Shown here in pieces: positions 10,320 to 48,566 of a stretch of DNA of 64,000 nucleotides. Position 1 is the first letter of the stretch, and every line of letters starts with the position of its first letter. Where the stretch lies: NCBI GenBank assembly GCA_021162545.1, contig JAGGYM010000053.1, positions 10,272-74,271 on the forward strand, written 5' to 3'. The stretch comes from Dehalococcoidia bacterium (GTDB lineage: Bacteria > Chloroflexota > Dehalococcoidia > GIF9 > AB-539-J10). The notes below the pieces were generated by a model that was not told the origin of the DNA, did not search any database, and saw only the letters and a program-made list of their open reading frames with translations. A program made the position numbers and the translations under genes.

Positions 10320-10332
10320 GATTTTATCTCCT

Positions 10333-11184: not shown

Positions 11185-11229
11185 AAAGCGAGTGTAATTA
11201 TAGCTTGGTATGCTAGACTAGTCCAGAAG

Positions 11230-13086: not shown

Positions 13087-13138
13087 GCGGCGAGAGGTAG
13101 GCCAGAAACAATAAATACAGGAGGTTTAATAGTCTGCG

Positions 13139-13690
13139 ATGTTAATAGAAGGGAAATTTACTCTAAAAGCTCCTATTCAGCAAACATGGGATTTCCTGCT
13201 CAAACCGGAAACGCTGGCTGCCTGTGTGCCCGGCGCGGAAAAAGTGGAACTGGTCGATGACAGGACGTTTGATTGCCTTGTTGCAGCGTCTGTAGGTGCC
13301 ATAAAAGTGAAGTTCCAATTCAGTGTCATTTTGACGGAGATAGATCCCCCGTCGCACTTGAAAGCGGAGGGTTCCGGCGAGGAAGTAAATAAACGTGGAA
13401 CTTTCACCATGCAGCTGACGGTGGACCTTAAAGAACTGCCGGAAGAAAACGTTGAAGTCTATTACAGGACCGACGTGAATATCGTGGGCAATCTGGCCAC
13501 CTTTGGCGACAGGATAATGAAAGCCAAGGCAAGGCAGGTGGGAGTAGAATTCGCCGACGCCCTGTCCAGAAAGCTGTCGGGCGAGGAAGTAGTTCCATCT
13601 ACCGGACTGAAAATGGGTGCAGGGGAGGTTGCAGCCAGCATTGCTGCGCTGCCAGCGGAAAAATTGAAAAACGTCTTCAAGAGAAAGTAA
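13139..13690 (+). CDS. SRPBCC-family CoxG-like protein (carbon monoxide dehydrogenase subunit G family)
   Basis: 183 aa. MLIEGKFTLKAPIQQTWDFLLKPE…CVPG matches the CoxG N-terminus. It lies directly upstream of FAD, Fe-S and Mo subunit genes. Confidence 0.8.
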   Translation: MLIEGKFTLKAPIQQTWDFLLKPETLAACVPGAEKVELVDDRTFDCLVAASVGAIKVKFQFSVILTEIDPPSHLKAEGSGEEVNKRGTFTMQLTVDLKELPEENVEVYYRTDVNIVGNLATFGDRIMKAKARQVGVEFADALSRKLSGEEVVPSTGLKMGAGEVAASIAALPAEKLKNVFKRK

Positions 13691-13747
13691 AACCGTCTGG
13701 TTGATGACTTCAGACAATATTAATATCCAAAAGGAGGATGGCAAAAC

Positions 13748-14680
13748 ATGATAAAGGACTTTGAGTACTCTGCCCCTGGAACGCTTGACGAAGCCTTGAG
13801 TTTGATATCTCAGTATGGGGAAGATGGCAAGATAATAGCAGGAGGGCAATCTTTGCTGCTTTTGATGAGGCGGAAATTGGTCGCTCCCCGGTACCTGGTT
13901 GATATCAAGGGCATATCATCTCTGGACTACATTAATATCAGCGAAAACGGCGACTTAAATATAGGCGCTTTAACAACACATCGAGCCATAGAGACATCCA
14001 GGGAAATACAGCAAAAATTCCGCATACTCTCTGAAATGGAAGAGAACATAGCTGCGGTCGAGAACCGAAACTGGGGCAGCATAGGAGGCAATCTTTGCCA
14101 TGCCGATCCAGTTGGGGATCCCTCTCCTGTATTGGTAGCATTAAATGCGCGCCTGGAGATCGTGAGCGTTCGAGGAGAGAGAACCGTGGCAGTGGAAGAT
14201 TTTGCCAGGGACCGCTTCTATGTAAATCTTGCGCACGATGAAATACTTACAGAGATTCAGGTGCCATGCCCTGCTCCTCGCACGGGAAGCAAATACACCA
14301 AGTTCAGCATCCTGGAAGGCAGTTTTGCTCTGGCATCGGTGGCCATGTCAGTTACCCTCAATGCTAAGAGCGATATCTGCGATGATGTCAGAATAGCCCT
14401 TGGGGCTGTAAATTCCACAGCTATGCGGGCCAGGGAAGCTGAGGAAGTACTCATAGGTAAAGAAATTACCGATGAGCTATTGGAAAAAGCAGGAGAGGTT
14501 GCCTCTGGGGAGGCTGATCCCATAGGTGATATGAGAGCTTCCGCGGCTTATCGGAAAGAGCTGGTGAAAGTGCTGGTGAAACGGGTAGGAAAGGAAGCTC
14601 TGTTGAGAGCTGGTAAGGATAGTTGGGAAGGGAGCTCTGCCAAGAGCGACGGGAAAGTAGCTCTGTTAGGAAGGAGATAA
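13748..14680 (+). CDS. xanthine dehydrogenase-family FAD-binding medium subunit (CoxM-like)
   Basis: 310 aa with the FAD-binding motif IIAGGQSLLLLMRRKL and a CO-dehydrogenase-flavoprotein C-terminal domain. Confidence 0.85.
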   Translation: MIKDFEYSAPGTLDEALSLISQYGEDGKIIAGGQSLLLLMRRKLVAPRYLVDIKGISSLDYINISENGDLNIGALTTHRAIETSREIQQKFRILSEMEENIAAVENRNWGSIGGNLCHADPVGDPSPVLVALNARLEIVSVRGERTVAVEDFARDRFYVNLAHDEILTEIQVPCPAPRTGSKYTKFSILEGSFALASVAMSVTLNAKSDICDDVRIALGAVNSTAMRAREAEEVLIGKEITDELLEKAGEVASGEADPIGDMRASAAYRKELVKVLVKRVGKEALLRAGKDSWEGSSAKSDGKVALLGRR

Positions 14681-14682
14681 AG

Positions 14683-15162
14683 ATGAAAAGAGAGTTGAAA
14701 ATCACGGTCAACGGTGATCTTTACGAACTTTACGTAGACCCTGGCATGTTACTGGTAGAGGTACTGAGAGACAGGCTGGGGCTGACGGGAACCAAGAGGG
14801 GTTGCAATAGCATGAGTTGTGGTGTCTGCACGGTGATACTGGACGGCAAGGCGGTTAAGTCATGCACCATACTTGCTCTTCAGGCAAACGGCAAGAACGT
14901 TACCACCATCGAAGGCATGGCCAACGGCTCTAAGTTGCACCCAATACAGCAGTCTTTCATTGACCACTGGGCATTCCAGTGCGGATTCTGCACTTCGGGG
15001 CAGATCATGGCAGCCAAAGCACTGCTGGACGAGAATCCCAATCCAACCAGAGAAGAAATCAAGCATACCATGAACGGTCATCTCTGCAGGTGCACCGGAT
15101 ATAACATGATTATCGAAGCGATACTGGATGCAGCAAACAGACTTCAGGAGGAAGTGAAATGA
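14683..15162 (+). CDS. xanthine dehydrogenase-family [2Fe-2S] small subunit (CoxS-like)
   Basis: MKRELKITVNG…GCNSMSCGVCTV… plus a second cluster motif (CGFCTSGQ). An RBS aggagataaag precedes the ATG at 14683. The track ORF starts upstream at 14623, in frame and overlapping the previous gene. Confidence 0.85.
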   Translation: MKRELKITVNGDLYELYVDPGMLLVEVLRDRLGLTGTKRGCNSMSCGVCTVILDGKAVKSCTILALQANGKNVTTIEGMANGSKLHPIQQSFIDHWAFQCGFCTSGQIMAAKALLDENPNPTREEIKHTMNGHLCRCTGYNMIIEAILDAANRLQEEVK

Positions 15163-17444
15163 AACATTATCATGTAATAGAGAAAGATACTCCCAATGTG
15201 GATGGATTTGCCAAGGTCACTGGCCAAGCGGTATATACTTTTGACATGACCATGCCCGGCATGCTTTATGGCAAGATATTGAGAAGTCCTCATCCTCATG
15301 CCAGGATCATCAGCATCGATACCAGCAAGGCTGAAAGCCTGCCCGGCGTTAAGGCAGTCATCACAGCCAAGGAAACGGGAGAGCGGCGGCAAGGTGCCTG
15401 GAGGCGCTACCAAGAGCTTTGCGATGAGCCCGTACTCTGCCTGGAAAAAGTTCGTTATATTGGAGACCCGGTAGCAGCAGTGGCCGCTATTGACGAAGAT
15501 ATTGCCATGGAAGCCCTGGACCTGATCGAGGTGGAATACGAACCGCTGCCTGCGGTGTTTGATCCCCTGGAGTCAATACAAGAGGGTGCGCCCCAGCTTC
15601 ACGATGAGGTAGAAAACAACATAAACGTGACCCGTCATATTGAATGGGGCGATGCGGACAAGGGGTTTGAGGAAGCAGACTTCATCAGGGAAGATGAGTT
15701 CATCTTGCCTGCTCAGAGCCATGTCCCTCTAGAGACGCATGGCTCCCTAGCCAGCTTTGATGGTGGCACCAACAGGTTGACGCTCTGGACTTCCACTCAG
15801 ACCCCCTACTATGTGCAGTGTTTACTGGCAGAGGCCATGGATTTGAGAGAGAACGAGGTGACGGTAATCAAACCTCATTGTGGATCGGGTTTTGGTGGCA
15901 AGAATGAACTGTTCGCCGACCAGTTCTGTGCCGGTTATCTGGCCAGAAAGACGGGTAGGCCAGTAAAGATAGTCTATACCAGGGAAGAAGAGTTTACCTG
16001 TGCGCGGCGCCGGACTCCAATACATTACTATCTCAAGATTGGTGCCAAACGCGACGGTACCTTTGTCGCCAAAGAGGCTAGGGCATTCAGCGATGGGGGA
16101 GCCTATACTTCCATGGGGGCTACTCTCCTTTACCTGACAGGATGGTTCTCAGCCTTCCCCTATTGCTATCCCAACTACAGGTACGATGGATACAAGGTTT
16201 TTACCAATAAGAGCCCGTCGTCTTCCATGCGCGGTTATGGTGGTATCCAGGCAAATTTTTGTGGCGAATCACAAATAGAAATGCTGGCTGCTGATATGGG
16301 GCTTGATCCCGTTGAAATAAGAAAGAAAAATGCCATGTACCCCAACTATGAGGTTCCCGGGCAGGCAACCATAGCGAGCTGCGGTCTGCCCGAAGGCCTT
16401 GAGAAAATAGGTGAATACATCAAGGAGCGCGGCGAATTACCCGAGGATCACGGCATAGGACTGGCTTGCTACGGTTTTAACAGCGGTGGCATCTTCAACT
16501 GGTTCAACACGCCCTATGCTTTTTCAGGAGCCGAGGTGAGAATAAACATCGACGGTATGGTTGACGTTTATTCTCTGGCAGCGGATATAGGTCAGGGTGC
16601 CGACACAACTATGTGCATGATAGCTGCGGAAGAGCTTGGTGTTCACCTTGACGATATCAGGATGCACTCGGGGGATACCAGTATTTGCCCCTCCGACCTC
16701 GGTGCCTGGGCCAGCAGGGAAACCCTGATGATGGGCAACGCCGTTAAGATGGCTGCGGCAGACGCCAAACGGCAGCTCTTCGAAGTGGCGGCATCGAAAA
16801 TGAGCGCGAATATCGTCTACGACCTGGAGGCAGGAGACAGAAGAATTTACCTCAGGGACCGCCCTGAAAGAGGCCTATCGTATTACGACGTCGTCAAGGA
16901 TGCCATAAGAGCCAAGGAAGGAAGTTTAATTGTAGGCAGAGGGCATTACACTCCCCATGGAAAGGGCATGATTTCTCCTGCTTTTAGCTTCGGCGTTCAG
17001 GCAATAGAAGTGAAGGTTGACAGGGAGACGGGGTATGTTAAAATAATGAACGCTTTTACCGCTCATGACTGCGGTCAGGTCATAAACCCTATGGCCGTTC
17101 GGGGACAGGTTGAGGGTTCTATAATGATGGCTGCTGGCTATGCTTATTCTGAGGAGATGCTGTATAGTGAGGGCGAGGTTTTGAACCCCAATCTCGTAGA
17201 TTATAGTCTGATTGGGTTTCGCGATATGCCCAGCGCGGTGACGGTAGATTGCCCGACCCATGAACCAGAAGGGCCTTTTGGAGCTAAGGAAGTGGGGGAA
17301 GGCATTACCTGTCCCACTGCGGGGGCACTGGCAAATGCCGTTTACCATGCCGTTGGCGTGCGGATTACTGATCCGCCGCTGACGCCGGAAAAAATTCTCA
17401 TGGCGTTGAAGAAGAAGGAGACACAAGAAAAATCGCCTAAGTAG
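15159..17444 (+). CDS. xanthine dehydrogenase-family molybdopterin-binding large subunit (aldehyde oxidase/xanthine dehydrogenase a/b hammerhead plus MoCo domains); substrate unknown
   Basis: 761 aa. It carries a GSGFGGK Mo-cofactor motif. The active-site region reads SMRGYGG rather than the CoxL VAYRCSFR/AYRGAGR loops, so it is probably not a true CO dehydrogenase. Confidence 0.85.
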   Translation: MKHYHVIEKDTPNVDGFAKVTGQAVYTFDMTMPGMLYGKILRSPHPHARIISIDTSKAESLPGVKAVITAKETGERRQGAWRRYQELCDEPVLCLEKVRYIGDPVAAVAAIDEDIAMEALDLIEVEYEPLPAVFDPLESIQEGAPQLHDEVENNINVTRHIEWGDADKGFEEADFIREDEFILPAQSHVPLETHGSLASFDGGTNRLTLWTSTQTPYYVQCLLAEAMDLRENEVTVIKPHCGSGFGGKNELFADQFCAGYLARKTGRPVKIVYTREEEFTCARRRTPIHYYLKIGAKRDGTFVAKEARAFSDGGAYTSMGATLLYLTGWFSAFPYCYPNYRYDGYKVFTNKSPSSSMRGYGGIQANFCGESQIEMLAADMGLDPVEIRKKNAMYPNYEVPGQATIASCGLPEGLEKIGEYIKERGELPEDHGIGLACYGFNSGGIFNWFNTPYAFSGAEVRINIDGMVDVYSLAADIGQGADTTMCMIAAEELGVHLDDIRMHSGDTSICPSDLGAWASRETLMMGNAVKMAAADAKRQLFEVAASKMSANIVYDLEAGDRRIYLRDRPERGLSYYDVVKDAIRAKEGSLIVGRGHYTPHGKGMISPAFSFGVQAIEVKVDRETGYVKIMNAFTAHDCGQVINPMAVRGQVEGSIMMAAGYAYSEEMLYSEGEVLNPNLVDYSLIGFRDMPSAVTVDCPTHEPEGPFGAKEVGEGITCPTAGALANAVYHAVGVRITDPPLTPEKILMALKKKETQEKSPK

Positions 17445-17473
17445 AGGCATAAGACAGAGAAGGAGGTTTACTA

Positions 17474-17695
17474 ATGTTTTATCATTGTCCGGTTTGTCAT
17501 AAGGTCTCACCGAATGCCAAGGACCTTGCCCGGCACATAATGGGAACGGGCAACAAAGAGCACCGGGGTTGGATCGAGTCGAAGTGCCTCTCTTTCTCGA
17601 AATTGCTCACCGCGCAAGCCACCAGCTTTGGAGACAAAGGGTATCAGCCCCTGACCGAGCTGCTGGAAAGAGAGGCTGAACGGGATGAAGAATAG
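17474..17695 (+). CDS. small C2H2-like zinc-finger protein (hypothetical)
   Basis: 73 aa with a strong RBS (gaaggagg) 6 nt upstream. The motif is C5-x2-C8-x12-H21-x8-H30 and the C-terminus is acidic. It sits between the Mo-subunit gene and hyuA. Confidence 0.45.
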   Translation: MFYHCPVCHKVSPNAKDLARHIMGTGNKEHRGWIESKCLSFSKLLTAQATSFGDKGYQPLTELLEREAERDEE

Positions 17696-17756
17696 GGAAG
17701 CAGTAAATCTGATGTCAAATAACTTCCCCACCAAGGGAAGGAGCGGAGGTAACTGA

Positions 17757-19817
17757 ATGCGAATAGGAATCGATGTAGGGGGTACTTTCACCGATGTGGT
17801 GCTGGTGGATGACGAAGGAAAGTTTTACTACACCAAGGCTACTACTACTCACTATGATTTAGCCGAAGGCGTACTGAACGGACTGGCTGATATCCTGCAG
17901 ATGTCGGGCAAATCCCTCAAGGAGACAGATACCATCGTCCACGGCACCACCATCGGCACCAATGCCATTGTGGAGGGAAATGGAGCCAGAGCAAGTCTGA
18001 TCACCACAAAGGGATTCGAGGACGTGCTGGAGATCAGGAGAGTGGCGCGCCCCAAAGAGGCCGCTTACGACTTCGAGGTGGACAACCCTCCTCCCCTGGT
18101 GCCGCGCTATTTGAGAAAGGGCATAATTGAACGCACCAATCACAAGGGAGAGGTAGTAATTCCCCTCGATGAAACTTCGGTGCGCCAAGTTGTAGCTTTC
18201 TTTAAAAAAGAGCAGGTGGATGCCATAGTAGTTTCTCTGCTTTTCTCTTTCCTCAACCCCGCTCATGAATTGCGCGTGGCTGAAATATGCCGGGAAATGA
18301 TGCCGGGAATAGATGTTTCCCTTTCGCATGAAATCTGTCCTGAATTTCGAGAGTACGAGCGAACCTGTACCACCGTTATGAACGGTTATCTTGGACCCGT
18401 TATCAGCGAGTACATGGACAATCTGGTTGCCCGTCTCACGAAAAGGTATGGAAAAGTCGACCTCCACATCATGCAGAGCAACGGCGGATCAATGACGGTT
18501 GATATCGCCAAGCACTACTCCGCCAACTTGATTAACTCAGGCCCCGCTGCCGGAGCCATTGCCTCCGCCTTCATCACCAAGCTCATGGGCAGAGACCTGG
18601 CTGTCGGCGCGGATATGGGAGGAACCACCTTTGATATCAGCCTCATCGACGGTGGTATTCCCAGAAGCACTACCTGGGGAGGAGTAACCGAATACCCTAT
18701 CAAGCTTCCCATGGTTGATATGACAACTATTGGCGCCGGTGGAGGTAGTATCGCCTGGATAGATGACATGGGGGCACTCAATGCAGGACCTCAGAGCGCC
18801 GGTTCGCAACCCGGGCCATCCTGCTACGGAACCGGTGGCGAATTGCCCACCATAACCGATGCTAACCTGGTTCTGCACCGACTGGATCCAAAGTATTTCC
18901 TGGGCGGCAGGCAGCAAATATACCCGGAAAAAGCGTATCAGGCCATCAAGGAACATGTAGCTGATAAGCTGGGAATGTCAGTGGAAGAGGCCGCTCTGGG
19001 AATAATCAGAATTGCCAACGCCAACATGGCAAAGGGCATCAGCGGCAGCTCAGTGGAAAGGGGATACGACCTGCGCGACTTCATGTTGATAGCCTTTGGT
19101 GGGGCCTGTTCCCTCCATGCCGTGGAGATAGCCAGGGAATTGCACATACCGGAGGTAGTAGCACCACCCATGTCCGGGCTCTATTCCGCTGTGGGGTTGG
19201 TCGTAGCCGACATACAGCACGATTACGTCAGGACGATGAAGGCGCGTATGGATGAACTCACAGGCCCGGAGATACAGGCCATTTTCCAGGAACTTGAAGA
19301 GAAGGGCATCCAGCAGTTGCGAGAAGAAAAGGTAAAGGAAGAGGACATGGTGCTGGAGTGGTCAGCCGATATGCGCTATGAGGGACAATCATGGGAATTA
19401 AACATTTCTATTGCGCGCACCGATACCGTAGGCCCTCAGGAAATAGCGCAAATAGAGTCTATCTTCCACGAAGAGCATCAAAAGGCATATTCCTATTCCA
19501 ATCCAGGGGAAGTGGTAGAATTTGTTAACTTCCGCGTGAGAGCCAAAGGCAAAGCTACCAAAGCGACTTTGCCCAGTTATCCTGAAGACCCAACTCCCCC
19601 GTCAGCAGCATTGAAGGATCGCAGAGTTGTCTGGTTTGATGAAGGCCCCCTTGAAATTCCCGTCTATGAGAGGGACCTCTTTGGAGTCGGCTCATCAGTA
19701 GATGGCCCCTGTATTATTGAGGAAAGAGTTTCCACGACTCTCGTGCCTGCGGGATGCACCTGTCGCATTGATGCCTTCAAGAACCTGGTGGTTTCCACTG
19801 GAGAAGATGAAGACTAA
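17757..19817 (+). CDS. hyuA: hydantoinase/oxoprolinase family protein, A subunit (HyuA / acetone-carboxylase-beta-like)
   Basis: 686 aa. MRIGIDVGGTFTDVVL is the ASKHA-fold N-terminus typical of N-methylhydantoinase A / 5-oxoprolinase. Confidence 0.85.
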   Translation: MRIGIDVGGTFTDVVLVDDEGKFYYTKATTTHYDLAEGVLNGLADILQMSGKSLKETDTIVHGTTIGTNAIVEGNGARASLITTKGFEDVLEIRRVARPKEAAYDFEVDNPPPLVPRYLRKGIIERTNHKGEVVIPLDETSVRQVVAFFKKEQVDAIVVSLLFSFLNPAHELRVAEICREMMPGIDVSLSHEICPEFREYERTCTTVMNGYLGPVISEYMDNLVARLTKRYGKVDLHIMQSNGGSMTVDIAKHYSANLINSGPAAGAIASAFITKLMGRDLAVGADMGGTTFDISLIDGGIPRSTTWGGVTEYPIKLPMVDMTTIGAGGGSIAWIDDMGALNAGPQSAGSQPGPSCYGTGGELPTITDANLVLHRLDPKYFLGGRQQIYPEKAYQAIKEHVADKLGMSVEEAALGIIRIANANMAKGISGSSVERGYDLRDFMLIAFGGACSLHAVEIARELHIPEVVAPPMSGLYSAVGLVVADIQHDYVRTMKARMDELTGPEIQAIFQELEEKGIQQLREEKVKEEDMVLEWSADMRYEGQSWELNISIARTDTVGPQEIAQIESIFHEEHQKAYSYSNPGEVVEFVNFRVRAKGKATKATLPSYPEDPTPPSAALKDRRVVWFDEGPLEIPVYERDLFGVGSSVDGPCIIEERVSTTLVPAGCTCRIDAFKNLVVSTGEDED

Positions 19818-19851
19818 GCTAAAATGACAGACATAAAAATGGAGGATGACA

Positions 19852-21585
19852 ATGGCTAAATACAAAGCAGATCCGGTTACCATGCAGGTTATTCGCTATG
19901 CGCTCGAGGCAGTGGCGGATGATATGGGGCATGCCCTGCAGCGCATGGGACGAAGCACCATCGTCAAGGAAATCATGGATTTTAACTGTGCCGTCCTTGG
20001 CCGCGAGGGCGACATTCTGGCTCAGGCGCATCTGTGTCCGCTGATGATGTTCAGCTTGCCTCGTACCTGCTATAACATAGTGCAGCATTACCCCGCAGAT
20101 TCCTGGCAGGAAGGCGATGTCATTATGACCAACGATCCCTACTTGGGAGGCCAGCACCTGCTCGATGTGCAGTTTTTCTCTCCGGTAATACACGAGGGCA
20201 AACACGTGGGCTTTGTGGCCAACATTTGTCACCAGCTGGATATGGGAGGAGCGGTCCCCGGAGGTGTAGCCGGAGGGCTCACCGAGATATATCAGGAAGG
20301 TCTGCGCATTCCCTTCGTTAAGATTCTCAAGGGGGGAAAAGAAGACGAAGAACTTTTCTCCCTTGTTGGACGGAACATTCGTATCCCGGAGAAGACCCTG
20401 TCTGACTTCAGGGCTCAAATTGCCACTACTGCAGTGGGGGTAAACAGGGTGAAAGAGGTCATAGATAAGTATGGATTGGATATCTTCCAGCAAAGCACTC
20501 AAATGCTGATAGATTACAGCGAGAAGCGAATCCGACGCTTCATCAGCGAACTCCCCGACGGTGACTACACCGGAGAAGACTGGCTGGACGATGATGGGCA
20601 CAGTGACGACCCCATTAGACTCCAGGTCAATGTACATGTACAGGGCGACACCATGAAGGTCGATTTTAAAGGTACTGCCAAGCAGGTTAAAGGCAATATC
20701 AATTGTCCCTGGTCCTGCAGCGAAGGAGCCGTGTTCTATACCGCAGTGGGCTTAATAGACCCCTATATGCCCATAAACGCCGGCTGTTTTCGCCCCATTG
20801 AAGTAACACCCGATGAGGGACTCATCACCTGTCCACTCCCGCCAGGAGCAGTCACCGCGCGCAGCCAGACGATGACCAAGATCACCGAGGCCATGCTCAG
20901 AGCCGTAGCTCCAATCCTGCCCAGTAAAGTTGTTTCAGGAAGTCATGGTCAGGCCACTACTTGCAGCTTCGCGGGAATTCATCCCGAGACGGGCAGGCCT
21001 TTTGGCTACATAGAAATCCAGGGGGGAGGCTGCGGTGCCAGGCCAGACAAGGATGGAGCTGATGGCCAGGACTTACACCTGGGACGGTTCATGAACACCC
21101 CGGTAGAGGCGGTGGAGATGGAATATCCCGTTACTATCGAGCGATACGGGTTCATTCCCGATTCAGCGGGGGCAGGAAGATGGAGGGGAGGCCTCAGCAT
21201 GCGCCGGGACATCCGCTTCCACGCAGATGTTACCTTCGCCAGGTACTCCGACAGACGCAAGTTTGCTCCTCAGGGAATCTTCGGGGGCAAAGAAGGAATC
21301 AAGGGTGACATGGTGCTCAACCCCGGCACTGATAAAGAAGAGCACCCCGAATCCAAGGGTGTCAGCGAGATAAAGGCGGGAGACCTTCTCAGCCTTCGCC
21401 TGCCCGGCAGCGGTGGCTATGGCCCCCCCTGGAAGCGAGAAGCCTCCAAAGTTCGCTGGGACGTGCTTAACGGCAAGATCAGCGCCGAATCAGCCAGGGA
21501 CAATTATCTGGTAGTCCTTAATCCTGATATCACGGTCAATGAGGAGAAGACGAAAGCCCTGCGAGACAGAGCTTCAGTTAAATAG
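19852..21585 (+). CDS. hyuB: hydantoinase B/oxoprolinase family protein (HyuB)
   Basis: 577 aa from the Met at 19852, which has a GGAGG RBS 6 nt upstream. DPVTMQVIRYAL…NDPYLGGQHL is the HyuB signature. Confidence 0.85.
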   Translation: MAKYKADPVTMQVIRYALEAVADDMGHALQRMGRSTIVKEIMDFNCAVLGREGDILAQAHLCPLMMFSLPRTCYNIVQHYPADSWQEGDVIMTNDPYLGGQHLLDVQFFSPVIHEGKHVGFVANICHQLDMGGAVPGGVAGGLTEIYQEGLRIPFVKILKGGKEDEELFSLVGRNIRIPEKTLSDFRAQIATTAVGVNRVKEVIDKYGLDIFQQSTQMLIDYSEKRIRRFISELPDGDYTGEDWLDDDGHSDDPIRLQVNVHVQGDTMKVDFKGTAKQVKGNINCPWSCSEGAVFYTAVGLIDPYMPINAGCFRPIEVTPDEGLITCPLPPGAVTARSQTMTKITEAMLRAVAPILPSKVVSGSHGQATTCSFAGIHPETGRPFGYIEIQGGGCGARPDKDGADGQDLHLGRFMNTPVEAVEMEYPVTIERYGFIPDSAGAGRWRGGLSMRRDIRFHADVTFARYSDRRKFAPQGIFGGKEGIKGDMVLNPGTDKEEHPESKGVSEIKAGDLLSLRLPGSGGYGPPWKREASKVRWDVLNGKISAESARDNYLVVLNPDITVNEEKTKALRDRASVK

Positions 21586-21702
21586 AATTGACTTCGCCCC
21601 AAGTGGTATACTGACCCTGTTCTGAGAAACAAAGTCAGAGAAACTAAAAGCCCAGGAGAGTGCTTGAAATAGAGGGCTCTCTTGGTTTGTGTAACTGATG
21701 TT

Positions 21703-23955
21703 ATGAATGACGAAATTGAAACCAAAAGAGCTCTTTGTTTTGCCTGTTCCGGGCTGGCAGGAGTTGAAGCTACCGTCAAAGATGGCAGGGTAGTAAAACT
21801 CAGTGGCGAGCCGGACCACTTCATGAACAAGGGATGGCTTTGTGACAGGTCCCGGGCATTCATGGAACATCTTTATCATCCCGACCGCCTGAATTACCCC
21901 TTGAAAAGAGCCGGCCGCAGAGGAGAAAACAAGTGGGAGAGGATTTCCTGGGACCAGGCCCTGGATGAAATAGCCAAAAAGCTAAAAGAGATAAAAGCGG
22001 ATTACGGAGCCGAGGCCCTGGCCAGCGTCTGTGGCACCGGCAGGGGACACCAGCAAATAATAAAAGAGAGGTTCATGAACCTCTTCGGCAGCCCCAACAG
22101 TGCCAATGCAGGGCAGTGGTGTGCCATTTATAACTACATGCTTGAGGCAGCAATCTATGGAGGGGCTACAAGGGGGAAATCGGGCCTTGGCGTTGGCAAG
22201 TGTCTCGTGTTGTGGGGAAAGGAACCGGCAGAATCTCAGGCATGCACCTTCCGAAACCTGCTGGAGCTGAAACGTGCTGGCACCAAGTTTATTGTCATTG
22301 ACCCGAAGCTTTCGCTGAGCGTGGATAAGCTCGCCGATGTATGGCTGCAGATTAGACCCGGCACGGATGCCGCTCTGGCACTGGGCTGGTTAAACGTCAT
22401 CATAGCAGAAGAACTCTACGACAAGGAATTCGTGGACAAATGGTGTTACGGCTTTGACCAGCTGAAGGAAAGGGTGAAGGAGTATCCCCCTGAGAAGGTA
22501 GCCGAGATAACCTGGATTCCCGAAGAAAAAATAGTGGAGGCGGCGCGTTTATATGCCACCAGCAAACCGGCATCTATCCAGTGGGGAGTAAAAGGAGGAG
22601 ATATGGAGGGGGTGAACGCCTCCTCAATGATGCACGCCAAGTGCATCCTGCGCGCCATTACCGGCAACCTCGACGTTCCGGGAGGTGACATAATCCAGGG
22701 GCCATGCGAGAAGGCCAACTATGGCCCCATCTTTGAATGCCTGGACATGATTCCACCGAAGCAGAGAGCCAAGCAGCTGGGCGCTGATAAGTACCGGGCG
22801 TGGACCTGGCCGGGCTATGAAATTATCTACGAAGCGGGCAAGCGCTACTGGTACGGGAAAGGTTGTTTTGGCGGTTATGCTCCTGCCTGCGACTTCCCCA
22901 GCTTGTGGCGAGCCATAATCACGGGCAAGCCATACCCGGTGAAGGCCTTGATATGCGGAGGGCACAATCCCCTCCTGGCCAATGCCAATACGCACATCGT
23001 CTACAAAGCACTCAAGAGTCCCAACCTCGAGCTAACTGTGGTTCTGGAGCAGTGGATGACGCCCAGCGCCATGCTGGCCGACTACGTCTTTCCCGTTGCC
23101 AACTGGTTGGAAAAGCCCGTTGTATCTATGCATACCAGCCAGGGCATGGGAAACTATGTTTCCATCGGGGAGAAGGTGGTAGAACCTCTCTACGATCGTA
23201 AGCCCGATCACTATTTCTACCGGGAACTTGGCTTGAGGCTCGGTCAGGAGAAGTACTGGTGCGACACGCTTGAAGACGAGTTCACCTGGCTGCTTGAGCC
23301 CCTGCTGGATGAATTGGGCTACGATTCCGCCATGGAATTTGCCAGGAAAGAGAGGTGGTGGCATCCACCTTTTGTGGAAAAGCGGTATGAAAAGATAAAT
23401 CCCAAGACGGGGAAGCAATGGGGTTTCGCCACGCCCACGGGAAAAGCCGAAGTTTATTCCACCTGGTTTGAGCAGCTTGGCTATGACCCCCTGCCTCATT
23501 ACGAAGAGCCGCCCGAAACGCCGGTAAGCAACCCTGAACTGGCCAAAGAATATCCCCTTATCCTCATGACGGGTATGCGGTTCAGGGCCATGCACCATTC
23601 AGAACACAGACAGATTTCCTCTTTACGGAGGCTGCAACCTTACCCCACAACCAGGATCCATCCTGATACGGCTCGAGAGCTCGGGATAAAAGATGGCGAC
23701 TGGGTTTTTATCGAGACCGTCAGGGGAAGAATCAAACAAAAGGCCTCTCTTTATGCTGGCATAAATCCAAAGGTAGTTGAGATTCAGCACGGCTGGTGGT
23801 TCCCGGAGAAAAAAGCGGAGGACCCCTCGTTGTTCGGGGTCTTCGAGTCCAACGCCAACGTGTTAACCGAAGACGATGAAAAACATCGAGATGCTCCGTC
23901 GGGGGCAGTAGCTTTTGTTCCTTACCTGTGCAAGGTTTACCCGGCAAATGAGTAA
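21703..23955 (+). CDS. molybdopterin/tungstopterin oxidoreductase, DMSO-reductase (MopB) family catalytic subunit; cytoplasmic (no Tat signal); alternative start at 21682
   Basis: About 750 aa. It has an N-terminal MopB Fe-S region, MGD-binding domains and a C-terminal molybdopterin dinucleotide-binding beta-barrel (…HGWWFPE…). The N-terminal motif reads C-x2-C-x3-A-x27-C, so the third Cys is replaced by Ala. Confidence 0.8.
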   Translation: MNDEIETKRALCFACSGLAGVEATVKDGRVVKLSGEPDHFMNKGWLCDRSRAFMEHLYHPDRLNYPLKRAGRRGENKWERISWDQALDEIAKKLKEIKADYGAEALASVCGTGRGHQQIIKERFMNLFGSPNSANAGQWCAIYNYMLEAAIYGGATRGKSGLGVGKCLVLWGKEPAESQACTFRNLLELKRAGTKFIVIDPKLSLSVDKLADVWLQIRPGTDAALALGWLNVIIAEELYDKEFVDKWCYGFDQLKERVKEYPPEKVAEITWIPEEKIVEAARLYATSKPASIQWGVKGGDMEGVNASSMMHAKCILRAITGNLDVPGGDIIQGPCEKANYGPIFECLDMIPPKQRAKQLGADKYRAWTWPGYEIIYEAGKRYWYGKGCFGGYAPACDFPSLWRAIITGKPYPVKALICGGHNPLLANANTHIVYKALKSPNLELTVVLEQWMTPSAMLADYVFPVANWLEKPVVSMHTSQGMGNYVSIGEKVVEPLYDRKPDHYFYRELGLRLGQEKYWCDTLEDEFTWLLEPLLDELGYDSAMEFARKERWWHPPFVEKRYEKINPKTGKQWGFATPTGKAEVYSTWFEQLGYDPLPHYEEPPETPVSNPELAKEYPLILMTGMRFRAMHHSEHRQISSLRRLQPYPTTRIHPDTARELGIKDGDWVFIETVRGRIKQKASLYAGINPKVVEIQHGWWFPEKKAEDPSLFGVFESNANVLTEDDEKHRDAPSGAVAFVPYLCKVYPANE

Positions 23956-23981
23956 GAGGAGCTGCACGTTACATTCGAGAT

Positions 23982-24623
23982 ATGGCTAAAGTGCATCTGG
24001 CCATCGATGGAGTGGACGTTGAGGTTGACCAAGGCACCACCATACTGGAAGCAGCTCGAGAAGCGGGCATTTATATCCCCACCCTGTGCTTTCATCCCGA
24101 TTTGCCGCTATCGCTAGCTGTGTGCCGCCTGTGCGTTGTTGAGGCTACAGAGGCGGAATCGCGGTTCCCCAGCTCGTGTGTCACCCCGGTTGCATGGGGG
24201 ATGATAGTTCGCACGGATACGCCAGCTGTCAAAGAGATCCGGCGGCACTTCTTCAAAGCCATTTTCTCTCCACTGCCAAGCCCCAGGCTCAACATGCCGG
24301 AGTTGAAGAAGCTCGCGGACTACATAGGTGTAGGGGAGGAGGATTTCCCCCCTTATGTTTTCAAGAACCTTCCCGTTGACCGCGACCAGCCGCTTCTCGA
24401 ACTGGACCACAACCGCTGTATCCTTTGCGAATTATGTATCAGGGCATGTAAAAAGGAACTGGGGGGAACCGGGGCAATAGACTTCGACTACAGGGGAGGG
24501 AGATGGATGGTAGTTCCTTTTCCTTCACCATCGCTCAAGGAAAACGGCTGCAGATTTTGTGGCCTCTGCGTGGAAGTGTGCCCCACGGGCGCGCTGAGAT
24601 ATAAGAAAGGTGAGAGTAATTGA
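23982..24623 (+). CDS. NuoG/HoxU-N-terminal-like iron-sulfur protein (2Fe-2S ferredoxin fold, a His/Cys3 [4Fe-4S] and a [4Fe-4S]), standalone copy
   Basis: 213 aa with CFHPDLPLSLAVCRLC (2Fe-2S), HNRCILCELCIRAC and CRFCGLCVEVCPTG. It is about 93% nucleotide-identical to the 5' 640 bp of the next gene. Confidence 0.75.
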   Translation: MAKVHLAIDGVDVEVDQGTTILEAAREAGIYIPTLCFHPDLPLSLAVCRLCVVEATEAESRFPSSCVTPVAWGMIVRTDTPAVKEIRRHFFKAIFSPLPSPRLNMPELKKLADYIGVGEEDFPPYVFKNLPVDRDQPLLELDHNRCILCELCIRACKKELGGTGAIDFDYRGGRWMVVPFPSPSLKENGCRFCGLCVEVCPTGALRYKKGESN

Positions 24624-25283
24624 TCACAGGAGGCAAAGAATATGGGTAAATTGCATCTGGCCATCGATGGCGTGGACGTTGAGGTTGATCAAGGCACCAC
24701 CATACTGGAAGCAGCTCGAGGAGCGGGCATTTATATTCCCACCCTGTGCTTTCATCCTGATTTGCCACTATCGCTAGCTGTCTGCCGCCTGTGCGTTGTT
24801 GAAGCTACGGAGGCGGAATCACGGTTCCCCAGTTCGTGTGTCACCCCGGTTGCACGGGGGATGATAGTTCGCACAAATACGCCAGCAGTCAGAGAGCTCC
24901 GGCGGCATTTCTTCAAGGCCCTGCTCACTCCACTGCCGAGCCCCAGGCTCAATATGCCGGGGTTGAAAAAGCTCGCGGACTACATAGGCGTAGAAGAGGG
25001 GGATTTCCCCCCTTATGTCTCCAGAAACCTTCCCGTTGACCGCGACCAGCCGCTTTTCGAACTGGACCACAACCGCTGTATCCTCTGCGGGCTATGCATA
25101 AGAGCATGCAAGGAACTGCGTGGTGTAGGGGCAATAGACTTCAGTCTCAAGGGCGAGAGCTGGACGGCAGGCCCCTTTCCCTCTCCATCGCTCAAGGAAA
25201 ACGGCTGCAGATTTTGTGGCCTCTGCGTGGAAGCGTGCCCTACAGGTGCACTGACGGACAGAGATGGAGGATGGGTCGACCGC
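23982..25283 (+). repeat. tandem direct duplication (~640 bp units at 23982..24623 and 24642..25283, ~93% nt identity)
   Basis: I aligned the two units by eye. The first 280 nt of each differ at about 20 positions and both keep an open frame with the same Cys motifs. Confidence 0.8.
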
Positions 25284-26759
25284 GACAAGCCACAGGCCCC
25301 CTGTACCCAGGCCTGTCCTGCGGGAGTTGACGTGCCGCGATACGTTTGGCTCATAGGACAGCGGAGATTCGATGACGCAGCGGCAGTTATCAGGGAAGAG
25401 GTTACTTTTCCCGGAGTTTTAGGTCGGGTATGCCCTCATCCCTGCGAAGAAAAGTGCCAGCGCGCCGCGCTAACCGAGCCCATCGCAATAGCGGCTTTGA
25501 AACGCACTGCTGCAGAGCAAAGCGTCAGCTGGCACCAAAATTTGCCGGCGGTTGTTGCCACCGGCAAAAAAATTGCCATCGTGGGCTCAGGCCCATGCGG
25601 TCTTACCGCCGGTTACCATCTGGCGCGCAAAGGCCACTCCGTGACCGTGTTTGAGGAGACGCTGGAACCGGGCGGCATGATGCGGTTGTGCATTCCGTCC
25701 TACCGTCTGCCCCGGCACATACTGGCGCAGGAAATAGAAGAGATCAAAAGAGCGGGGGTCGCCATAAAAACGGGCGCGAAAGTGGAATCGGTGAGCAAAC
25801 TCTTTCAGCAGGGGTACAATGCTGTCCTGCTTGCCACCGGAGCTCACCAGTCGCTCAAGCTGGGCATAGAAGGTGAAAACGGTCCCGGTGTGATGAACGG
25901 CGTTGCTTTCTTAAAAGACGCAAACCTGGGAAAAGTGCGCCACATTGAGGGATGGATAGCGGTCGTTGGTGGAGGAAATGCTGCCATAGATTCTGCACGA
26001 GTGGCCTTGCGGATGGGAGCTCAGAGGGTAACCATCCTCTACAGGCGCTCCCGTACAGAGATGCCAGCAGATGTCGAGCAGGTGGAAGCGGCACTGGAAG
26101 AGGGGATTGAAATCGAATTTCTCACTGCTCCCACGAAGATACTCAGAAAAGGCGGCAGCCTCCAGGTCGAATGCATCCGGATGAAGCTGGGAGAGAAAGA
26201 TGCCAGCGGGAGACAGCGGCCCCTTCCCATCGAAGGGAGCGAGCGCGTTCTTGAGTTTGACACTCTCCTTGCAGCCATCGGAGAAACTGCTGAAAGTTCC
26301 TTCATTGGAGAAAACGACTCCGTGCAAATTGGCAATACGGGGTTGATCGCAGTTGATGAGAGTGGCGTGACAACTGATATGCCGGGCGTTTATGCGGCAG
26401 GCGATGCAGTCAGCGGCCCATCTACCGTTATCGAGGCCATCGCTATGGGGAAGAAAGCCGCCGCATCCATCGATAAATACCTCGGTGGAGATGGAGATAT
26501 AAGCGAAAATCTAATTGAGCCGGCAGTGCCCAATTTACGGGCGGAACCCGTAGAGGACTTCGCTGACCTGAATCGCGTTCGAAAACCCTGTCTGCCAGTC
26601 GAGCAACGAATGATTCTCGCTCCAGATGGAACTTTCCCCGAGGTAGAGCTTGGATTTACTGGAGCCATGGCGTCCGAAGAAGCAAGCCGATGCTTGCAAT
26701 GCCAGCTAAGGTTCAGCATTTCTCCTGTTGTGCCTCTGCCAGCAAAACAGGCGCGTTAA
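24642..26759 (+). CDS. fusion protein: NuoG-N-terminal-like Fe-S module plus 2x[4Fe-4S] plus GltD-like NAD(P)H-dependent FAD oxidoreductase
   Basis: 705 aa. The first ~200 aa are near-identical to the preceding ORF. Then comes a dinucleotide-binding GltD-like domain (KIAIVGSGPCGLTAGYHLA…AAGDAVSGPSTVIEAIAMG). Confidence 0.8.
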   Translation: MGKLHLAIDGVDVEVDQGTTILEAARGAGIYIPTLCFHPDLPLSLAVCRLCVVEATEAESRFPSSCVTPVARGMIVRTNTPAVRELRRHFFKALLTPLPSPRLNMPGLKKLADYIGVEEGDFPPYVSRNLPVDRDQPLFELDHNRCILCGLCIRACKELRGVGAIDFSLKGESWTAGPFPSPSLKENGCRFCGLCVEACPTGALTDRDGGWVDRDKPQAPCTQACPAGVDVPRYVWLIGQRRFDDAAAVIREEVTFPGVLGRVCPHPCEEKCQRAALTEPIAIAALKRTAAEQSVSWHQNLPAVVATGKKIAIVGSGPCGLTAGYHLARKGHSVTVFEETLEPGGMMRLCIPSYRLPRHILAQEIEEIKRAGVAIKTGAKVESVSKLFQQGYNAVLLATGAHQSLKLGIEGENGPGVMNGVAFLKDANLGKVRHIEGWIAVVGGGNAAIDSARVALRMGAQRVTILYRRSRTEMPADVEQVEAALEEGIEIEFLTAPTKILRKGGSLQVECIRMKLGEKDASGRQRPLPIEGSERVLEFDTLLAAIGETAESSFIGENDSVQIGNTGLIAVDESGVTTDMPGVYAAGDAVSGPSTVIEAIAMGKKAAASIDKYLGGDGDISENLIEPAVPNLRAEPVEDFADLNRVRKPCLPVEQRMILAPDGTFPEVELGFTGAMASEEASRCLQCQLRFSISPVVPLPAKQAR

Positions 26760-26769
26760 GGAGGATACG

Positions 26770-27750
26770 ATGTTTTCCAGCGAAGTAGTCATCAACGAAG
26801 AACGATGTCGTGGATGTGGATATTGTGTGCAATTTTGCCCTCGAGAATGTCTGGAACTGGACAGGGACAAGATCGGCCCCCTGGGATGTGCCCTGCCCGT
26901 TTTGACCAAAGCTGAGCAATGCAATACTTGTGGGGTTTGTGCCAGAATGTGTCCCCACTGGGCAATAGAGGTTTTCGCAACTCTAAAGATTCCGGAGGAA
27001 GCTCCCATCAGGGAAAAAATTGCAGGCTTACCAAAGTTGATGCCTTCTCCACCTCTGGCAAACTGTGCCGGATGTCAGCATCCAACGGTGGGCAGGCTCA
27101 TTGCCGGAGTTATAGCTGAACTGGGGCTCCGCGATAAGTTCGTCGCTCTCGATGGCATAAGCTGTGGAGGTTCATCAGTGTTAAGCATGGATTTCGGGCA
27201 GGTAGTGGGCATATATGACGACCCGATCGAGATGGCTCTGGCGGCCAAGCGCGCCCATCCCGATAAAGTCGTACTCGCTTTACTGAACAGCCCGAAGTTC
27301 GATATCATCGGCTACGATTCTTTGATGAGGGCGCTGACTTCGTCTGAAAAGATTACGATCATTAACTGTAATGACCCTCTCTATGGCCCGTGGCCGGCAA
27401 AGTGGCGCGTGGCCACTCCGGTGAGCTGCGTTCCTGATCCTGCTGCCGGGGAATTGACTGTAAGCAAATATCATGTACCGATGGCTGAAATGGCAGCAAC
27501 GTTCGACGGAGTTGCCTACAGCGCCCGTGGCGCTTTTACCTCGCTGGATGATTATGAGCACACAAAAAGCTATCTCAGAACTGCCATTCAAAAGCAGGTG
27601 CATAATGCCGGTTTTAGTTTTGTGGACGTTCTTTGCGCATGCATGGTTTTATCATATGAGAATCCCGTGGATTGTTTGCGGTGGATCAAAGAGGAGATGG
27701 TTGCTAAACTCCCTCTGGGCATATACAAGAACACCGATCGCGAGAGATAA
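26770..27750 (+). CDS. 2x[4Fe-4S] ferredoxin domain fused to a 2-oxoacid:ferredoxin-oxidoreductase beta-subunit-like (TPP-fold) domain; function unknown
   Basis: There is an RBS aggaggatacg before the ATG at 26770. The N-terminus reads CRGCGYCVQFCP…CNTCGVCARMCP. A CAGCQHP motif sits where OFOR beta subunits carry CPGCGH. No clear GDG TPP motif was seen. The track ORF starts at 26728. Confidence 0.5.
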   Translation: MFSSEVVINEERCRGCGYCVQFCPRECLELDRDKIGPLGCALPVLTKAEQCNTCGVCARMCPHWAIEVFATLKIPEEAPIREKIAGLPKLMPSPPLANCAGCQHPTVGRLIAGVIAELGLRDKFVALDGISCGGSSVLSMDFGQVVGIYDDPIEMALAAKRAHPDKVVLALLNSPKFDIIGYDSLMRALTSSEKITIINCNDPLYGPWPAKWRVATPVSCVPDPAAGELTVSKYHVPMAEMAATFDGVAYSARGAFTSLDDYEHTKSYLRTAIQKQVHNAGFSFVDVLCACMVLSYENPVDCLRWIKEEMVAKLPLGIYKNTDRER

Positions 27751-46703: not shown

Positions 46704-46759
46704 AGATTCTGTTCTTTCTGTAGAACCTTAACAATTGAATAGTGGAAGGAAGGTTTTTA

Positions 46760-48276
<1,517 letters not shown>

Positions 48277-48358: not shown

Positions 48359-48566
48359 CTTCCACTATTCAGTTGTTAAAGACATTGGTTTGTGCGTTGA
48401 AGACTATTGCGAAATTTGTACAGCCCTTCTTGTAATTCATAGAATCTAAACACAGCCATAGCATTATTTTGACGGTCTTTTCGGCTATAAGGTATACTAC
48501 TTCCTTTCAGTGCCAAGAGGTATCTCTTGTGGCATAAAAATAAGGAAAGAAGAAGGAGATAGAATA

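Follow-up and report, generated by a model that had tools for sequence, protein, structure and literature searches.

A putative catabolic operon in a Dehalococcoidia bacterium combining an XDH-type enzyme, a HyuAB pair and an acetylene-hydratase-like enzyme

In a 64-kb stretch of DNA from a Dehalococcoidia bacterium (64,000 nucleotides, hereafter the window), we analyzed 11 open reading frames (ORFs) at positions 13139-27750, which lie on a single strand with intergenic gaps of -4 to 96 nt. As judged from the encoded proteins, they most likely constitute a chromosomal operon assembled from three enzyme modules: an enzyme of the xanthine dehydrogenase (XDH) family, a HyuAB pair, and an acetylene-hydratase-like (AH-like) enzyme with electron-transfer partners. 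The tight co-directional spacing fits one transcription unit. We tentatively propose, at somewhat less than an even chance, that the operon acts on an N-heterocyclic aromatic carboxylic acid, which may bear a ring hydroxyl as well, and converts it through hydroxylation, lactam opening, and (de)hydroxylation by an enzyme of the bis-MGD type (MGD, molybdopterin guanine dinucleotide). An earlier reading of this DNA (the first-pass annotation) had listed the same components on the plus strand in the same order, and all of them are present, although it counted 13 genes where we find 11. Domains were assigned with Pfam and NCBIfam profiles, and nearest solved relatives by sequence scores against the PDB.

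Three enzyme modules and their electron-transfer partners

The genes of the cluster are as follows:

13139-13690, plus strand: CoxG-family (SRPBCC) accessory protein (Pfam COXG, 74 bits)
13748-14680, plus strand: FAD-binding medium subunit of the XDH family, CoxM/aldehyde-oxidoreductase type (Pfam FAD_binding_5 and CO_deh_flav_C)
14683-15162, plus strand: small subunit of the XDH family with two [2Fe-2S] clusters (Pfam Fer2 and Fer2_2)
15159-17444, plus strand: large molybdopterin (Mo) subunit of a clade closest to 4-hydroxybenzoyl-CoA reductase alpha (Ald_Xan_dh_C and MoCoBD_1/2)
17474-17695, plus strand: C2H2-like zinc-finger protein of 73 aa (DUF5810, 27.4 bits; zf-C2H2 below cut-off)
17757-19817, plus strand: HyuA, ATP-binding alpha subunit of the hydantoinase/lactamase type (Hydant_A_N, Hydantoinase_A, Hydant_A_C)
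19846-21585, plus strand: HyuB, beta subunit of HyuAB (Pfam Hydantoinase_B, 565 bits)
21682-23955, plus strand: bis-MGD enzyme (Mo or W) of the DMSO-reductase family, cytoplasmic and AH-like (best PDB match 2e7z)
23982-24623, plus strand: Fe-S protein of the HoxU/NuoG-N-terminal type with [2Fe-2S] and [4Fe-4S] clusters (Pfam Fer2_4, Fer4_7, Fer4_Nqo3)
24642-26759, plus strand: fusion of a HoxU-like Fe-S domain and a GltD/NfnB-type NAD(P)H-binding FAD flavoprotein, HoxU-GltD (Fer2_4, Fer4_Nqo3, Fer4_20, Pyr_redox_2)
26767-27750, plus strand: ferredoxin with two [4Fe-4S] clusters joined to a domain like the beta subunit of 2-oxoacid:ferredoxin oxidoreductase (OFOR), Fd/OFOR-beta (Fer4; OGOR delta and OFOR beta matches)

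The probable true start of the 2Fe-2S subunit is the ATG at 14683, with a good ribosome-binding site (AGGAAGGAG), and the AH-like gene possibly starts at the ATG at 21703.

We found the XDH-type module to have the three-subunit architecture of its family, with every domain above the Pfam cut-offs. The Mo subunit keeps the catalytic Glu, in a motif (GAKEVGEG) that matches the corresponding one in HcrA, CO dehydrogenase (CODH), and Qor, and has MRGYGG at the position of the CODH loop AYxCSFR, which contains the Cu-binding Cys, as the first-pass annotation had indicated in remarking that this loop is missing. The nearest solved structure is by far that of HcrA, the alpha subunit of 4-hydroxybenzoyl-CoA reductase (4-HBCR; 1rm6_A, 502 bits, with any other structure at 301 bits or less), and hundreds of homologs at ~65% identity include many that are automatically named "4-hydroxybenzoyl-CoA reductase". 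All three Hcr equivalog models were nevertheless missed, at 715 versus 995 bits for alpha (TIGR03194), 122 versus 405 for beta, and 173 versus 258 for gamma. The FAD subunit (310 aa; best PDB match 4zoh_B) can be aligned over its whole length with CoxM-type subunits that lack the loop, whereas HcrB (1rm6_B) aligns with it only over residues 2-118, indicating that the HcrB-specific [4Fe-4S] insertion is absent. This absence favors the normal electron path of a hydroxylase, and an ordinary hydroxylase-type flavoprotein agrees with the earlier call of an XDH-family hydroxylase.

From its gene order elsewhere, the XDH module is a self-contained five-gene unit. Two loci (L076 and L077; L numbers denote the loci compared) carry CoxG, FAD, Fe-S, and Mo subunits and a 72-aa protein in the order of the window at 53-66% identity, with no HyuAB nearby; CoxG occupies the same position there (53-58% identity), and the 72-aa protein directly 3' of the Mo subunit is 59% identical to the zinc finger of the window. 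Since this homolog follows the Mo subunit in loci that lack HyuAB, the zinc finger can be counted to the XDH module. For the same reason, we ruled out that the 73-aa protein is a carboxylase gamma subunit, which would have made HyuAB a ketone carboxylase.

HyuAB has all domains of its type and an alpha/beta composition without a gamma subunit, and HyuA carries both phosphate-binding motifs (DVGGTFTD and DMGGTT), which correspond to the DxGGTxTD and DxGGT motifs described for caprolactamase (PMC8453981). Against the PDB, HyuA scored 482 bits with N-methylhydantoinase and 472 with caprolactamase, versus 350 with acetophenone carboxylase (Apc) and 282 with acetone carboxylase (Acx), and HyuB scored 328 and 225 bits with N-methylhydantoinase and caprolactamase, respectively; a further carboxylase score was 117 bits. 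The ApcD model gave 126 bits, and the caprolactamase equivalog CapAB was not reached either (622 and 304 bits versus a cut-off of 1000). These scores place HyuAB with the predicted ATP-dependent cyclic-amide hydrolases and not with the carboxylases, in keeping with the hydantoinase/lactamase assignment made earlier. An exact-sequence look-up of HyuB returned no record; its nearest relatives, at 89-90% identity, are in metagenome-assembled genomes (MAGs) of Dehalococcoidia and Dehalococcoidales, and HyuAB orthologs at 61-77% identity are widespread in Desulfobacterota and occur also in Acidobacteria and other MAGs.

The third enzyme, which the first-pass annotation had called a Mo/W reductase, is indeed a cytoplasmic Mo/W enzyme of the DMSO-reductase family, and appears to belong, more exactly, to the acetylene-hydratase/catechol-dehydroxylase clade. 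Its best solved relative is acetylene hydratase (2e7z, 474 bits, 40% identity), followed by thiosulfate reductase at 232 bits. The metal-ligand cysteine is kept (Cys147, equivalent to Cys141, the W ligand of acetylene hydratase) and is followed by Ala148 instead of the His of formate dehydrogenases. Compared with acetylene hydratase, however, the catalytic Asp13, neighbor of the second cluster Cys, is replaced by Ser, Cys16 (the third Fe-S cysteine) by Ala, and Lys48 by Arg, such that of the acetylene hydratase hallmarks (Asp13, the four-Cys motif, and Cys141) only the last is retained. There is no twin-arginine (TAT) leader, with ~14 residues preceding the Cys motif, and no PsrB/C-like gene; the PhsA model was missed at 300 versus 694 bits, which sets the protein apart from PsrA/PhsA. 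An S- or N-oxide reductase, considered because some orthologs have MttB/URO-D and corrinoid neighbors, was rejected (DMSO/TMAO reductase structures scored at most 141 versus 474 bits).

The substitutions in the AH-like protein characterize a whole group. All of ~60 orthologs (at least 61% identity) lack the third Fe-S cysteine, which is Ala or Gly, and have Ser or Trp at the Asp13 position, whereas paralogs at ~50% identity retain the third cysteine and mostly have His at that position. Four cysteines (C188, C342, C403, and C750 in window numbering) are invariant among the orthologs and have no counterpart in acetylene hydratase by pairwise alignment; one of these could stand in for the absent Fe-S ligand or be part of a further site. 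The best functional lead is provided by the Mo-dependent catechol dehydroxylases, which are the closest relatives of acetylene hydratase, include a soluble subtype that lacks a TAT signal and works with a small 4Fe-4S protein, and have many uncharacterized environmental homologs (PMC7028382); the likeness of the AH-like enzyme to them is one of description.

The three genes that follow the AH-like gene would wire it to NAD(P)H. The HoxU-GltD fusion scored 524 bits with NCBIfam PRK12814 and 335 bits with the YgfK model, and its domains make it a plausible NAD(P)H link for the Mo/W enzyme, as had been suggested earlier. Its N-terminal 210 residues (24642-25268) share 84% protein and 88% DNA identity with the stand-alone HoxU-like gene (23982-24623), which, to judge from this similarity, arose recently by tandem duplication of that region of the fusion gene. 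The duplication junction is also found in an independent contig (L158), which turns chimeric at exactly this HoxU repeat: it matches the window to 24550 and then continues as an inverted 100% copy of 24465-25058, indicating that its assembly breaks there. In the Fd/OFOR-beta protein, the GDG motif that binds thiamine pyrophosphate (TPP) is replaced by NSPKFD, and OFOR alpha and gamma genes are absent, so that it does not have the makings of a working OFOR. By contrast, the beta homolog in L085 keeps GDGG and belongs to a true OFOR operon with a POR_N alpha and a POR gamma gene. Besides OFOR alpha, TPP-beta, and gamma, that operon (10291-15323 of its locus, minus strand) encodes an aminotransferase, an AMP-ligase, and a fusion of HoxU, GltD, and ferredoxin that is 843 aa long; it resembles an NAD(P)-linked 2-oxoacid oxidoreductase and is a likely evolutionary source of the electron-transfer genes of the window. 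Taken with this intact operon, the degenerate TPP motif makes the window pair look like an OFOR remnant reused as an electron wire, with the Fd/OFOR-beta protein as a probable electron-transfer partner of the bis-MGD enzyme. AH-like, HoxU-GltD, and Fd/OFOR-beta genes also occur together in L080 and L131, where HoxU-GltD is downstream of the AH-like gene, and AH-like and Fd/OFOR-beta genes in L007; in all three loci the Fd/OFOR-beta gene adjoins the AH-like one.

It could be asked whether the three modules are simply familiar housekeeping enzymes: an aerobic-type CODH, a 5-oxoprolinase for the repair of 5-oxoproline, and an NAD(P)-dependent formate dehydrogenase. The domain architecture of CoxG with CoxLMS-like subunits, the inclusion of 5-oxoprolinases among the HyuAB-family enzymes, a partial match to the formate dehydrogenase alpha model (TIGR01591, 286 bits), and HoxU/GltD partners resembling those of soluble formate dehydrogenases all point in this direction. 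Yet the CODH loop is missing and the CODH models were far from being reached (TIGR02416, 315 bits versus a cut-off of 991; NF040766, 337 versus 950); the formate dehydrogenase cut-off of 666 bits is likewise distant, Cys147 is followed by Ala instead of forming a Cys-His pair, and the match to acetylene hydratase is twice as good. By these active-site checks, the CODH and formate dehydrogenase identities are largely refuted. As HyuAB orthologs lie amid catabolic genes, among them those for TRAP transporters, ligases, XDH, and DHODH-like proteins, a repair role does not fit, though 5-oxoprolinase activity remains compatible with the sequence. Overall, we regard the housekeeping explanation as highly improbable.

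Conservation of the cluster and its chromosomal setting

The part of the cluster that persists most clearly between lineages is the order Mo-HyuA-HyuB-AH-like. Among very close relatives, the order of the window recurs as FeS-Mo-ZnF-HyuA-HyuB in L013, as HyuA-HyuB-AH-like in L012, and in L158, an independent JGI contig that is 99.4% identical over 16241-24550. In L001-L003, the next closest genomes, which share the right flank from RluD to CorA, only Mo-HyuA-HyuB-AH-like is retained at the same chromosomal site, with core proteins 68-87% identical to those of the window (73% for the Mo subunit). A TRAP permease gene and genes resembling those for Amdase, PyrK, DHODH, and racemase lie upstream of this core; electron-transfer genes are not found downstream of it. 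The gene-order conservation that the first-pass annotation had asked about is thus partial: the four-gene core is conserved in L001-L003, while the full cluster is confined to L012, L013, and L158. That the core order survives while both flanks differ supports a single pathway.

The same enzyme types were moreover found joined through different family members. AH-like orthologs adjoin paralogous HyuAB pairs (30-38% identity) in L082, L085, and L094, and orthologous ones in L089 and L004; three of the four HyuAB pairs counted beside AH-like orthologs are paralogs. XDH trios beside HyuAB in other phyla belong to a clade different from that of the window (28-41% identity). All three enzyme types occur together in the lineage of the window, in the L001 lineage, and in L004/L062, and, with paralogs, in L061 and L070. 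Joining via paralogous members indicates repeated independent association beyond shared descent, which argues for a functional coupling of the modules.

Several observations weigh against such a coupling, and against the proposed pathway with it. Counting neighbors in loci of at least 8 kb, XDH subunits accompany HyuAB orthologs in 12-13 of 46 loci across several phyla, but an AH-like gene is found in only 4 of the 46, and the full three-way set is rare. The 32 AH-like loci contain HyuAB in 4, HoxU-GltD-like genes in 5, Fd/OFOR-beta in 2, and XDH in 1. The XDH, HyuAB, and AH-like modules each also occur alone in other genomes, and AH-like orthologs in L007-L011 and L105-L127 belong to methyltransferase or TRAP/CN-hydrolase operons. 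In L001-L003, the Mo subunit stands without adjacent FAD and Fe-S subunits, with a PyrK-like/DHODH-like pair upstream. The direction of the XDH-type reaction is itself uncertain because the nearest characterized relative of the large subunit is a reductive dehydroxylase. Finally, transporter, CoA ligase, regulator, DHODH-like, and Amdase-like genes are the commonest neighbors of HyuAB orthologs elsewhere, and upon searching the 64-kb window by tblastn with the 28 commonest neighbor families of these loci, we found no transporter, CoA ligase, or regulator, nor a DHODH-like reductase, Amdase/EutA-like, or TRAP gene.

These points would be explained if the three modules were functionally independent, each with its own substrate, and adjacent merely by descent at a variable chromosomal spot that accumulates catabolic genes. 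Such a spot would account for a left part that varies (CoxG/FAD/FeS in the window versus Amdase/PyrK/DHOdh/racemase in L001-L003), for a right part with three electron-transfer genes in the window and none in L001-L003, and for the few HyuAB and AH-like loci (4 of 46 and 4 of 32) that carry the other partner, and the finding would then reduce to an ordinary patch of catabolic genes. However, gaps of -4 to 96 nt on one strand throughout, a core order that persists while both flanks change, and the re-association of paralogous members in other phyla, which shared descent does not explain, speak against it, and we consider independence of the modules somewhat unlikely.

The AH-like and HyuAB orthologs have recurrent neighborhoods of their own. 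Upon clustering the neighbors of HyuAB in 64 loci, we obtained TRAP transporters (~35 loci), AMP-forming ligases (23; a few other loci have PaaK-like ligases), a DHODH-1B-like pair (~20), Amdase/EutA-like proteins (~16), and XDH trios (~13) as partners, with alpha/beta-hydrolases, aldehyde:ferredoxin oxidoreductases (AOR), UbiD, and V4R regulators as further recurrent ones; the AOR genes beside HyuAB orthologs in Desulfobacterota (L025, L036, L051, L075) are 32% identical to a tungsten-type AOR of the window (60379-62262, minus strand; AFOR_N/AFOR_C). AH-like orthologs lie directly 3' of genes for a methyltransferase (URO-D-type or MttB-type) and a corrinoid protein in L007, L008/L009, L092, L099, L114, L118, L122, and L124, one of these orthologs being from an Olavius-associated Delta 1 proteobacterium, and such loci suggest demethylation followed by action of the bis-MGD enzyme. 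In L105-L112, L121, L125, L127, and L141, AH-like orthologs of the Desulfobacterota type end a long conserved operon with DAO, RpiR, aldehyde dehydrogenase, class-I GATase, RidA, OYE, TRAP DctPQM, CN-hydrolase, and a ~397-aa Fe-S protein with a match to Fer4_16, a double-cluster domain of Pfam, in its C-terminal part; the operon looks like another uncharacterized pathway for an N-compound. Fer4_397, the Fe-S partner of the Desulfobacterota AH-like orthologs, was considered as a homolog of the Fd/OFOR-beta protein of the window and found not to be homologous.

The cluster is embedded among core genes, with DnaB, a DnaD-like gene, PolA, an NfnAB-like pair, and Fpg upstream and RluD, LspA, PEPCK, DnaK, GrpE, HrcA, CorA, CoaX, and ValS downstream. 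Its GC content and base composition are unremarkable, and no integrase, mobility gene, or flanking tRNA was found around it. Hence, it is a chromosomal operon; a mobile island is ruled out, and the label "island" given to it in the first-pass annotation should be dropped. A promoter and terminator scan was uninformative, and Rfam at gathering thresholds reported only a 16S rRNA and two tRNAs, with no molybdenum cofactor (Moco) or other riboswitch upstream of the cluster.

Further features lie near the cluster or elsewhere in the window. The 1-kb gap before CoxG (12058-13138) contains a 38-aa Cys-rich ORF (12645-12761; MAKAKLCPFSHRLCTECPYYRG...) with a ribosome-binding site and, overlapping it in another frame, a 172-aa ORF (12568-13086) without a family match; the region may be regulatory, or it may hold a small gene that is novel or frameshifted. 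Just upstream, at 8913-11184 on the minus strand, a GltD-like (468 aa) and a PyrK-like (283 aa) protein form an NfnAB/SudAB-type pair, the former being 37% identical to the GltD part of the 24642-26759 fusion. A complete 16S rRNA gene (46759-48274), which can be used to place the organism, stands alone, as no 23S or 5S rRNA was reported in the window at the Rfam gathering thresholds; unlinked rRNA genes are typical of Dehalococcoidia. Two FolD (methylene-THF dehydrogenase/cyclohydrolase) paralogs lie in tandem at 48510-50324, next to SHMT (45351-46607). A large DUF2229 "CoA enzyme activase" protein (27-2198), truncated by the start of the window, could bear on the metabolism of CoA esters or on that of radical dehydratases.

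Proposed pathway

In the pathway that we tentatively favor, the XDH-type hydroxylase would first hydroxylate, with oxygen taken from water, the carbon adjacent to the ring nitrogen of a heteroaromatic carboxylate or its CoA ester, yielding a lactam; a CoA thioester is a possible substrate, given that 4-HBCR alpha, which binds CoA esters, is the closest relative of the large subunit. By analogy to IaaCE, caprolactamase, and N-methylhydantoinase, HyuAB would then phosphorylate the lactam iminol with ATP and hydrolyze the ring. As a third step, the AH-like enzyme would remove or, less likely, add a ring hydroxyl, exchanging electrons with NAD(P)H via HoxU-GltD, the extra HoxU copy, and the Fd/OFOR-beta relic, a step that could rebalance the two electrons released in the first. 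The pathway sketched in the first-pass annotation fares well insofar as none of the enzyme systems reaches the curated score of CODH, xanthine dehydrogenase, 4-HBCR, caprolactamase, or formate dehydrogenase, and XDH genes do stand beside HyuAB in about a quarter of the counted loci; its logic of hydroxylating and then opening the ring is, however, not new (see below). It had named, as findings that would speak against it, an assignment of the genes to separately characterized pathways and a lack of conserved co-occurrence. No gene was so assigned and some co-occurrence is conserved, yet the full cluster is lineage-restricted and modular.

A different chemistry would result if both metal enzymes were reductive dehydroxylases supplied with NAD(P)H via HoxU-GltD, a catechol-dehydroxylase-like enzyme acting on a free phenolic or catecholic acid and a 4-HBCR-like enzyme on its CoA ester, feeding a benzoyl-CoA-type route, with HyuAB unrelated or carboxylase-like. 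The proximity of the Mo subunit to HcrA fits this, as does the place of the AH-like protein in the acetylene hydratase clade that is reported to hold catechol dehydroxylases. The corrinoid and URO-D-type methyltransferase genes beside AH-like orthologs in six loci could encode catechol-yielding O-demethylases, related loci contain UbiD, PaaK-like, and AMP-ligase genes, and in L080 an MFS transporter adjoins, as reported for Gordonibacter dehydroxylases (PMC7028382). Yet the FAD subunit lacks the [4Fe-4S] insertion that enables the reverse direction in 4-HBCR, the three Hcr cut-offs were missed, HyuAB is clearly of the hydrolase type without a gamma subunit, and the likeness to catechol dehydroxylases is, as noted above, descriptive. 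Among the scanned ORFs of the window there is also no CoA ligase or benzoyl-CoA-pathway gene, with some ORFs, such as that of the DUF2229 protein at 27-2198, lying outside the scan. We therefore judge a phenolic acid route to be unlikely.

A bolder reading can also be considered, in which AH-like orthologs with a three-Cys motif and Ser or Trp for Asp13, an Fd/OFOR-beta protein that does not bind TPP, and HoxU-GltD would represent a new class of bis-MGD enzymes, soluble and NAD(P)H-dependent, for ring (de)hydroxylation. Coupled to an XDH-type hydroxylase and an ATP-dependent lactamase, this class would give sediment Dehalococcoidia an anaerobic route, not described before, for carboxylates that are N-heterocyclic or hydroxy-aromatic. 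We put this forward as a doubtful suggestion. Non-dechlorinating Dehalococcoidia are abundant in anoxic sediments and their diet is largely unknown; if the proposed pathway is real, they would have a testable catabolic trait, the anaerobic opening of an N-heterocycle or hydroxy-aromatic acid by Mo/W chemistry and ATP. It would also indicate a large uncharacterized acetylene-hydratase/catechol-dehydroxylase branch with an unusual Fe-S site of three cysteines and a novel electron-input module linked to NAD(P)H. As the same building blocks recur in many Desulfobacterota loci, solving one such system would annotate hundreds of genes, among them those now labeled "4-hydroxybenzoyl-CoA reductase", "N-methylhydantoinase", or "anaerobic selenocysteine-containing dehydrogenase".

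Comparison with known systems

The anaerobic indoleacetate (iaa) pathway, which is proposed to begin with a hydroxylation and an ATP-driven opening of the lactam, provides a precedent for this logic. According to work by Ebenau-Jehle et al. in 2012, an XDH-family Mo enzyme reportedly hydroxylates the carbon of the pyrrole ring that adjoins the nitrogen to give 2-oxoindoleacetate. The ATP-dependent hydantoinase-like IaaCE then opens 2-oxoindoleacetate or its CoA ester (PMC8453981, PMC5214803). The iaa cluster (Aromatoleum aromaticum/Azoarcus evansii, and predicted in sulfate reducers) thus resembles the pathway proposed for the window in hydroxylating first and then opening the ring with a HyuAB-type enzyme, and iaa-operon-like loci (L040, L015, L025, L061) combine orthologs of the window HyuAB (64-68% identity) with a B12 mutase, an acyl-CoA dehydrogenase, and a family III CoA-transferase. 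Of the iaa set, however, the window shares only HyuAB and an XDH-type enzyme: it lacks the PaaK-like ligase (IaaB), the mutase (IaaGH), the acyl-CoA dehydrogenase (IaaF), the CoA-transferase (IaaL), and the binding protein. In the 64-kb window, B12 mutase, acyl-CoA dehydrogenase, CoA-transferase, and AMP-ligase families gave no tblastn match, nor did a PaaK-like query. The window in turn adds an enzyme that probably belongs to the acetylene-hydratase/catechol-dehydroxylase clade and an NAD(P)H-linked electron module, neither of which is known as an iaa component.

The AH-like enzyme can be set beside two kinds of relatives. From acetylene hydratase, it differs in having Ser in place of Asp13, which is essential for acetylene hydration. 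The catechol dehydroxylases (Dadh, Hcdh, and Cadh of Eggerthella; Dodh and Cldh of Gordonibacter) are grouped with acetylene hydratase (PMC7028382), the nearest solved relative of the AH-like protein, which resembles the Gordonibacter subtype in its length (~750 aa), the lack of a TAT signal, a small Fe-S protein partner, and the conserved metal-ligand cysteine. Unlike these dehydroxylases, it is accompanied by an OFOR-derived Fe-S protein and HoxU-GltD instead of a plain ferredoxin or a membrane anchor, and its contexts are catabolic operons of sediment anaerobes. For the XDH-type enzyme, 4-HBCR (HcrABC of Thauera aromatica) provides the nearest large subunit and the same three-subunit Mo/FeS/FAD architecture, whereas the sub-threshold equivalog scores, the missing HcrB [4Fe-4S] loop, and the conserved five-gene unit with CoxG and a zinc finger set the window enzyme apart. 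HyuAB shares its two-subunit alpha/beta composition, all Pfam domains, and both phosphate motifs with lactamases and hydantoinases (CapAB, N-methylhydantoinase, OplAB), though it stays below the caprolactamase cut-off, and it differs from acetone and acetophenone carboxylases in its much lower similarity and the lack of a gamma subunit.

A parallel is found in the nicotinate fermentation cluster of Eubacterium barkeri and the ygeW-ygfT purine/urate cluster of E. coli, which join a hydroxylase of the XDH family, working on an N-heterocycle, to steps that reduce the ring and hydrolyze an amide bond. Fe-S flavoproteins of the GltD kind (YgfK, AegA, YgfT) serve as partners of enzymes of the XDH family, and the HoxU-GltD fusion of the window is likened to E. 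coli YgfK by its score on that model. These nicotinate and purine clusters, however, use ring openers of the amidohydrolase superfamily (enamidase, dihydropyrimidinase-like) and not an ATP-dependent HyuAB, and they have no bis-MGD enzyme. What is new in the window is hence the AH-like subclade with its three-cysteine cluster site, its OFOR-derived and HoxU-GltD partners, and its combination with XDH and HyuAB.

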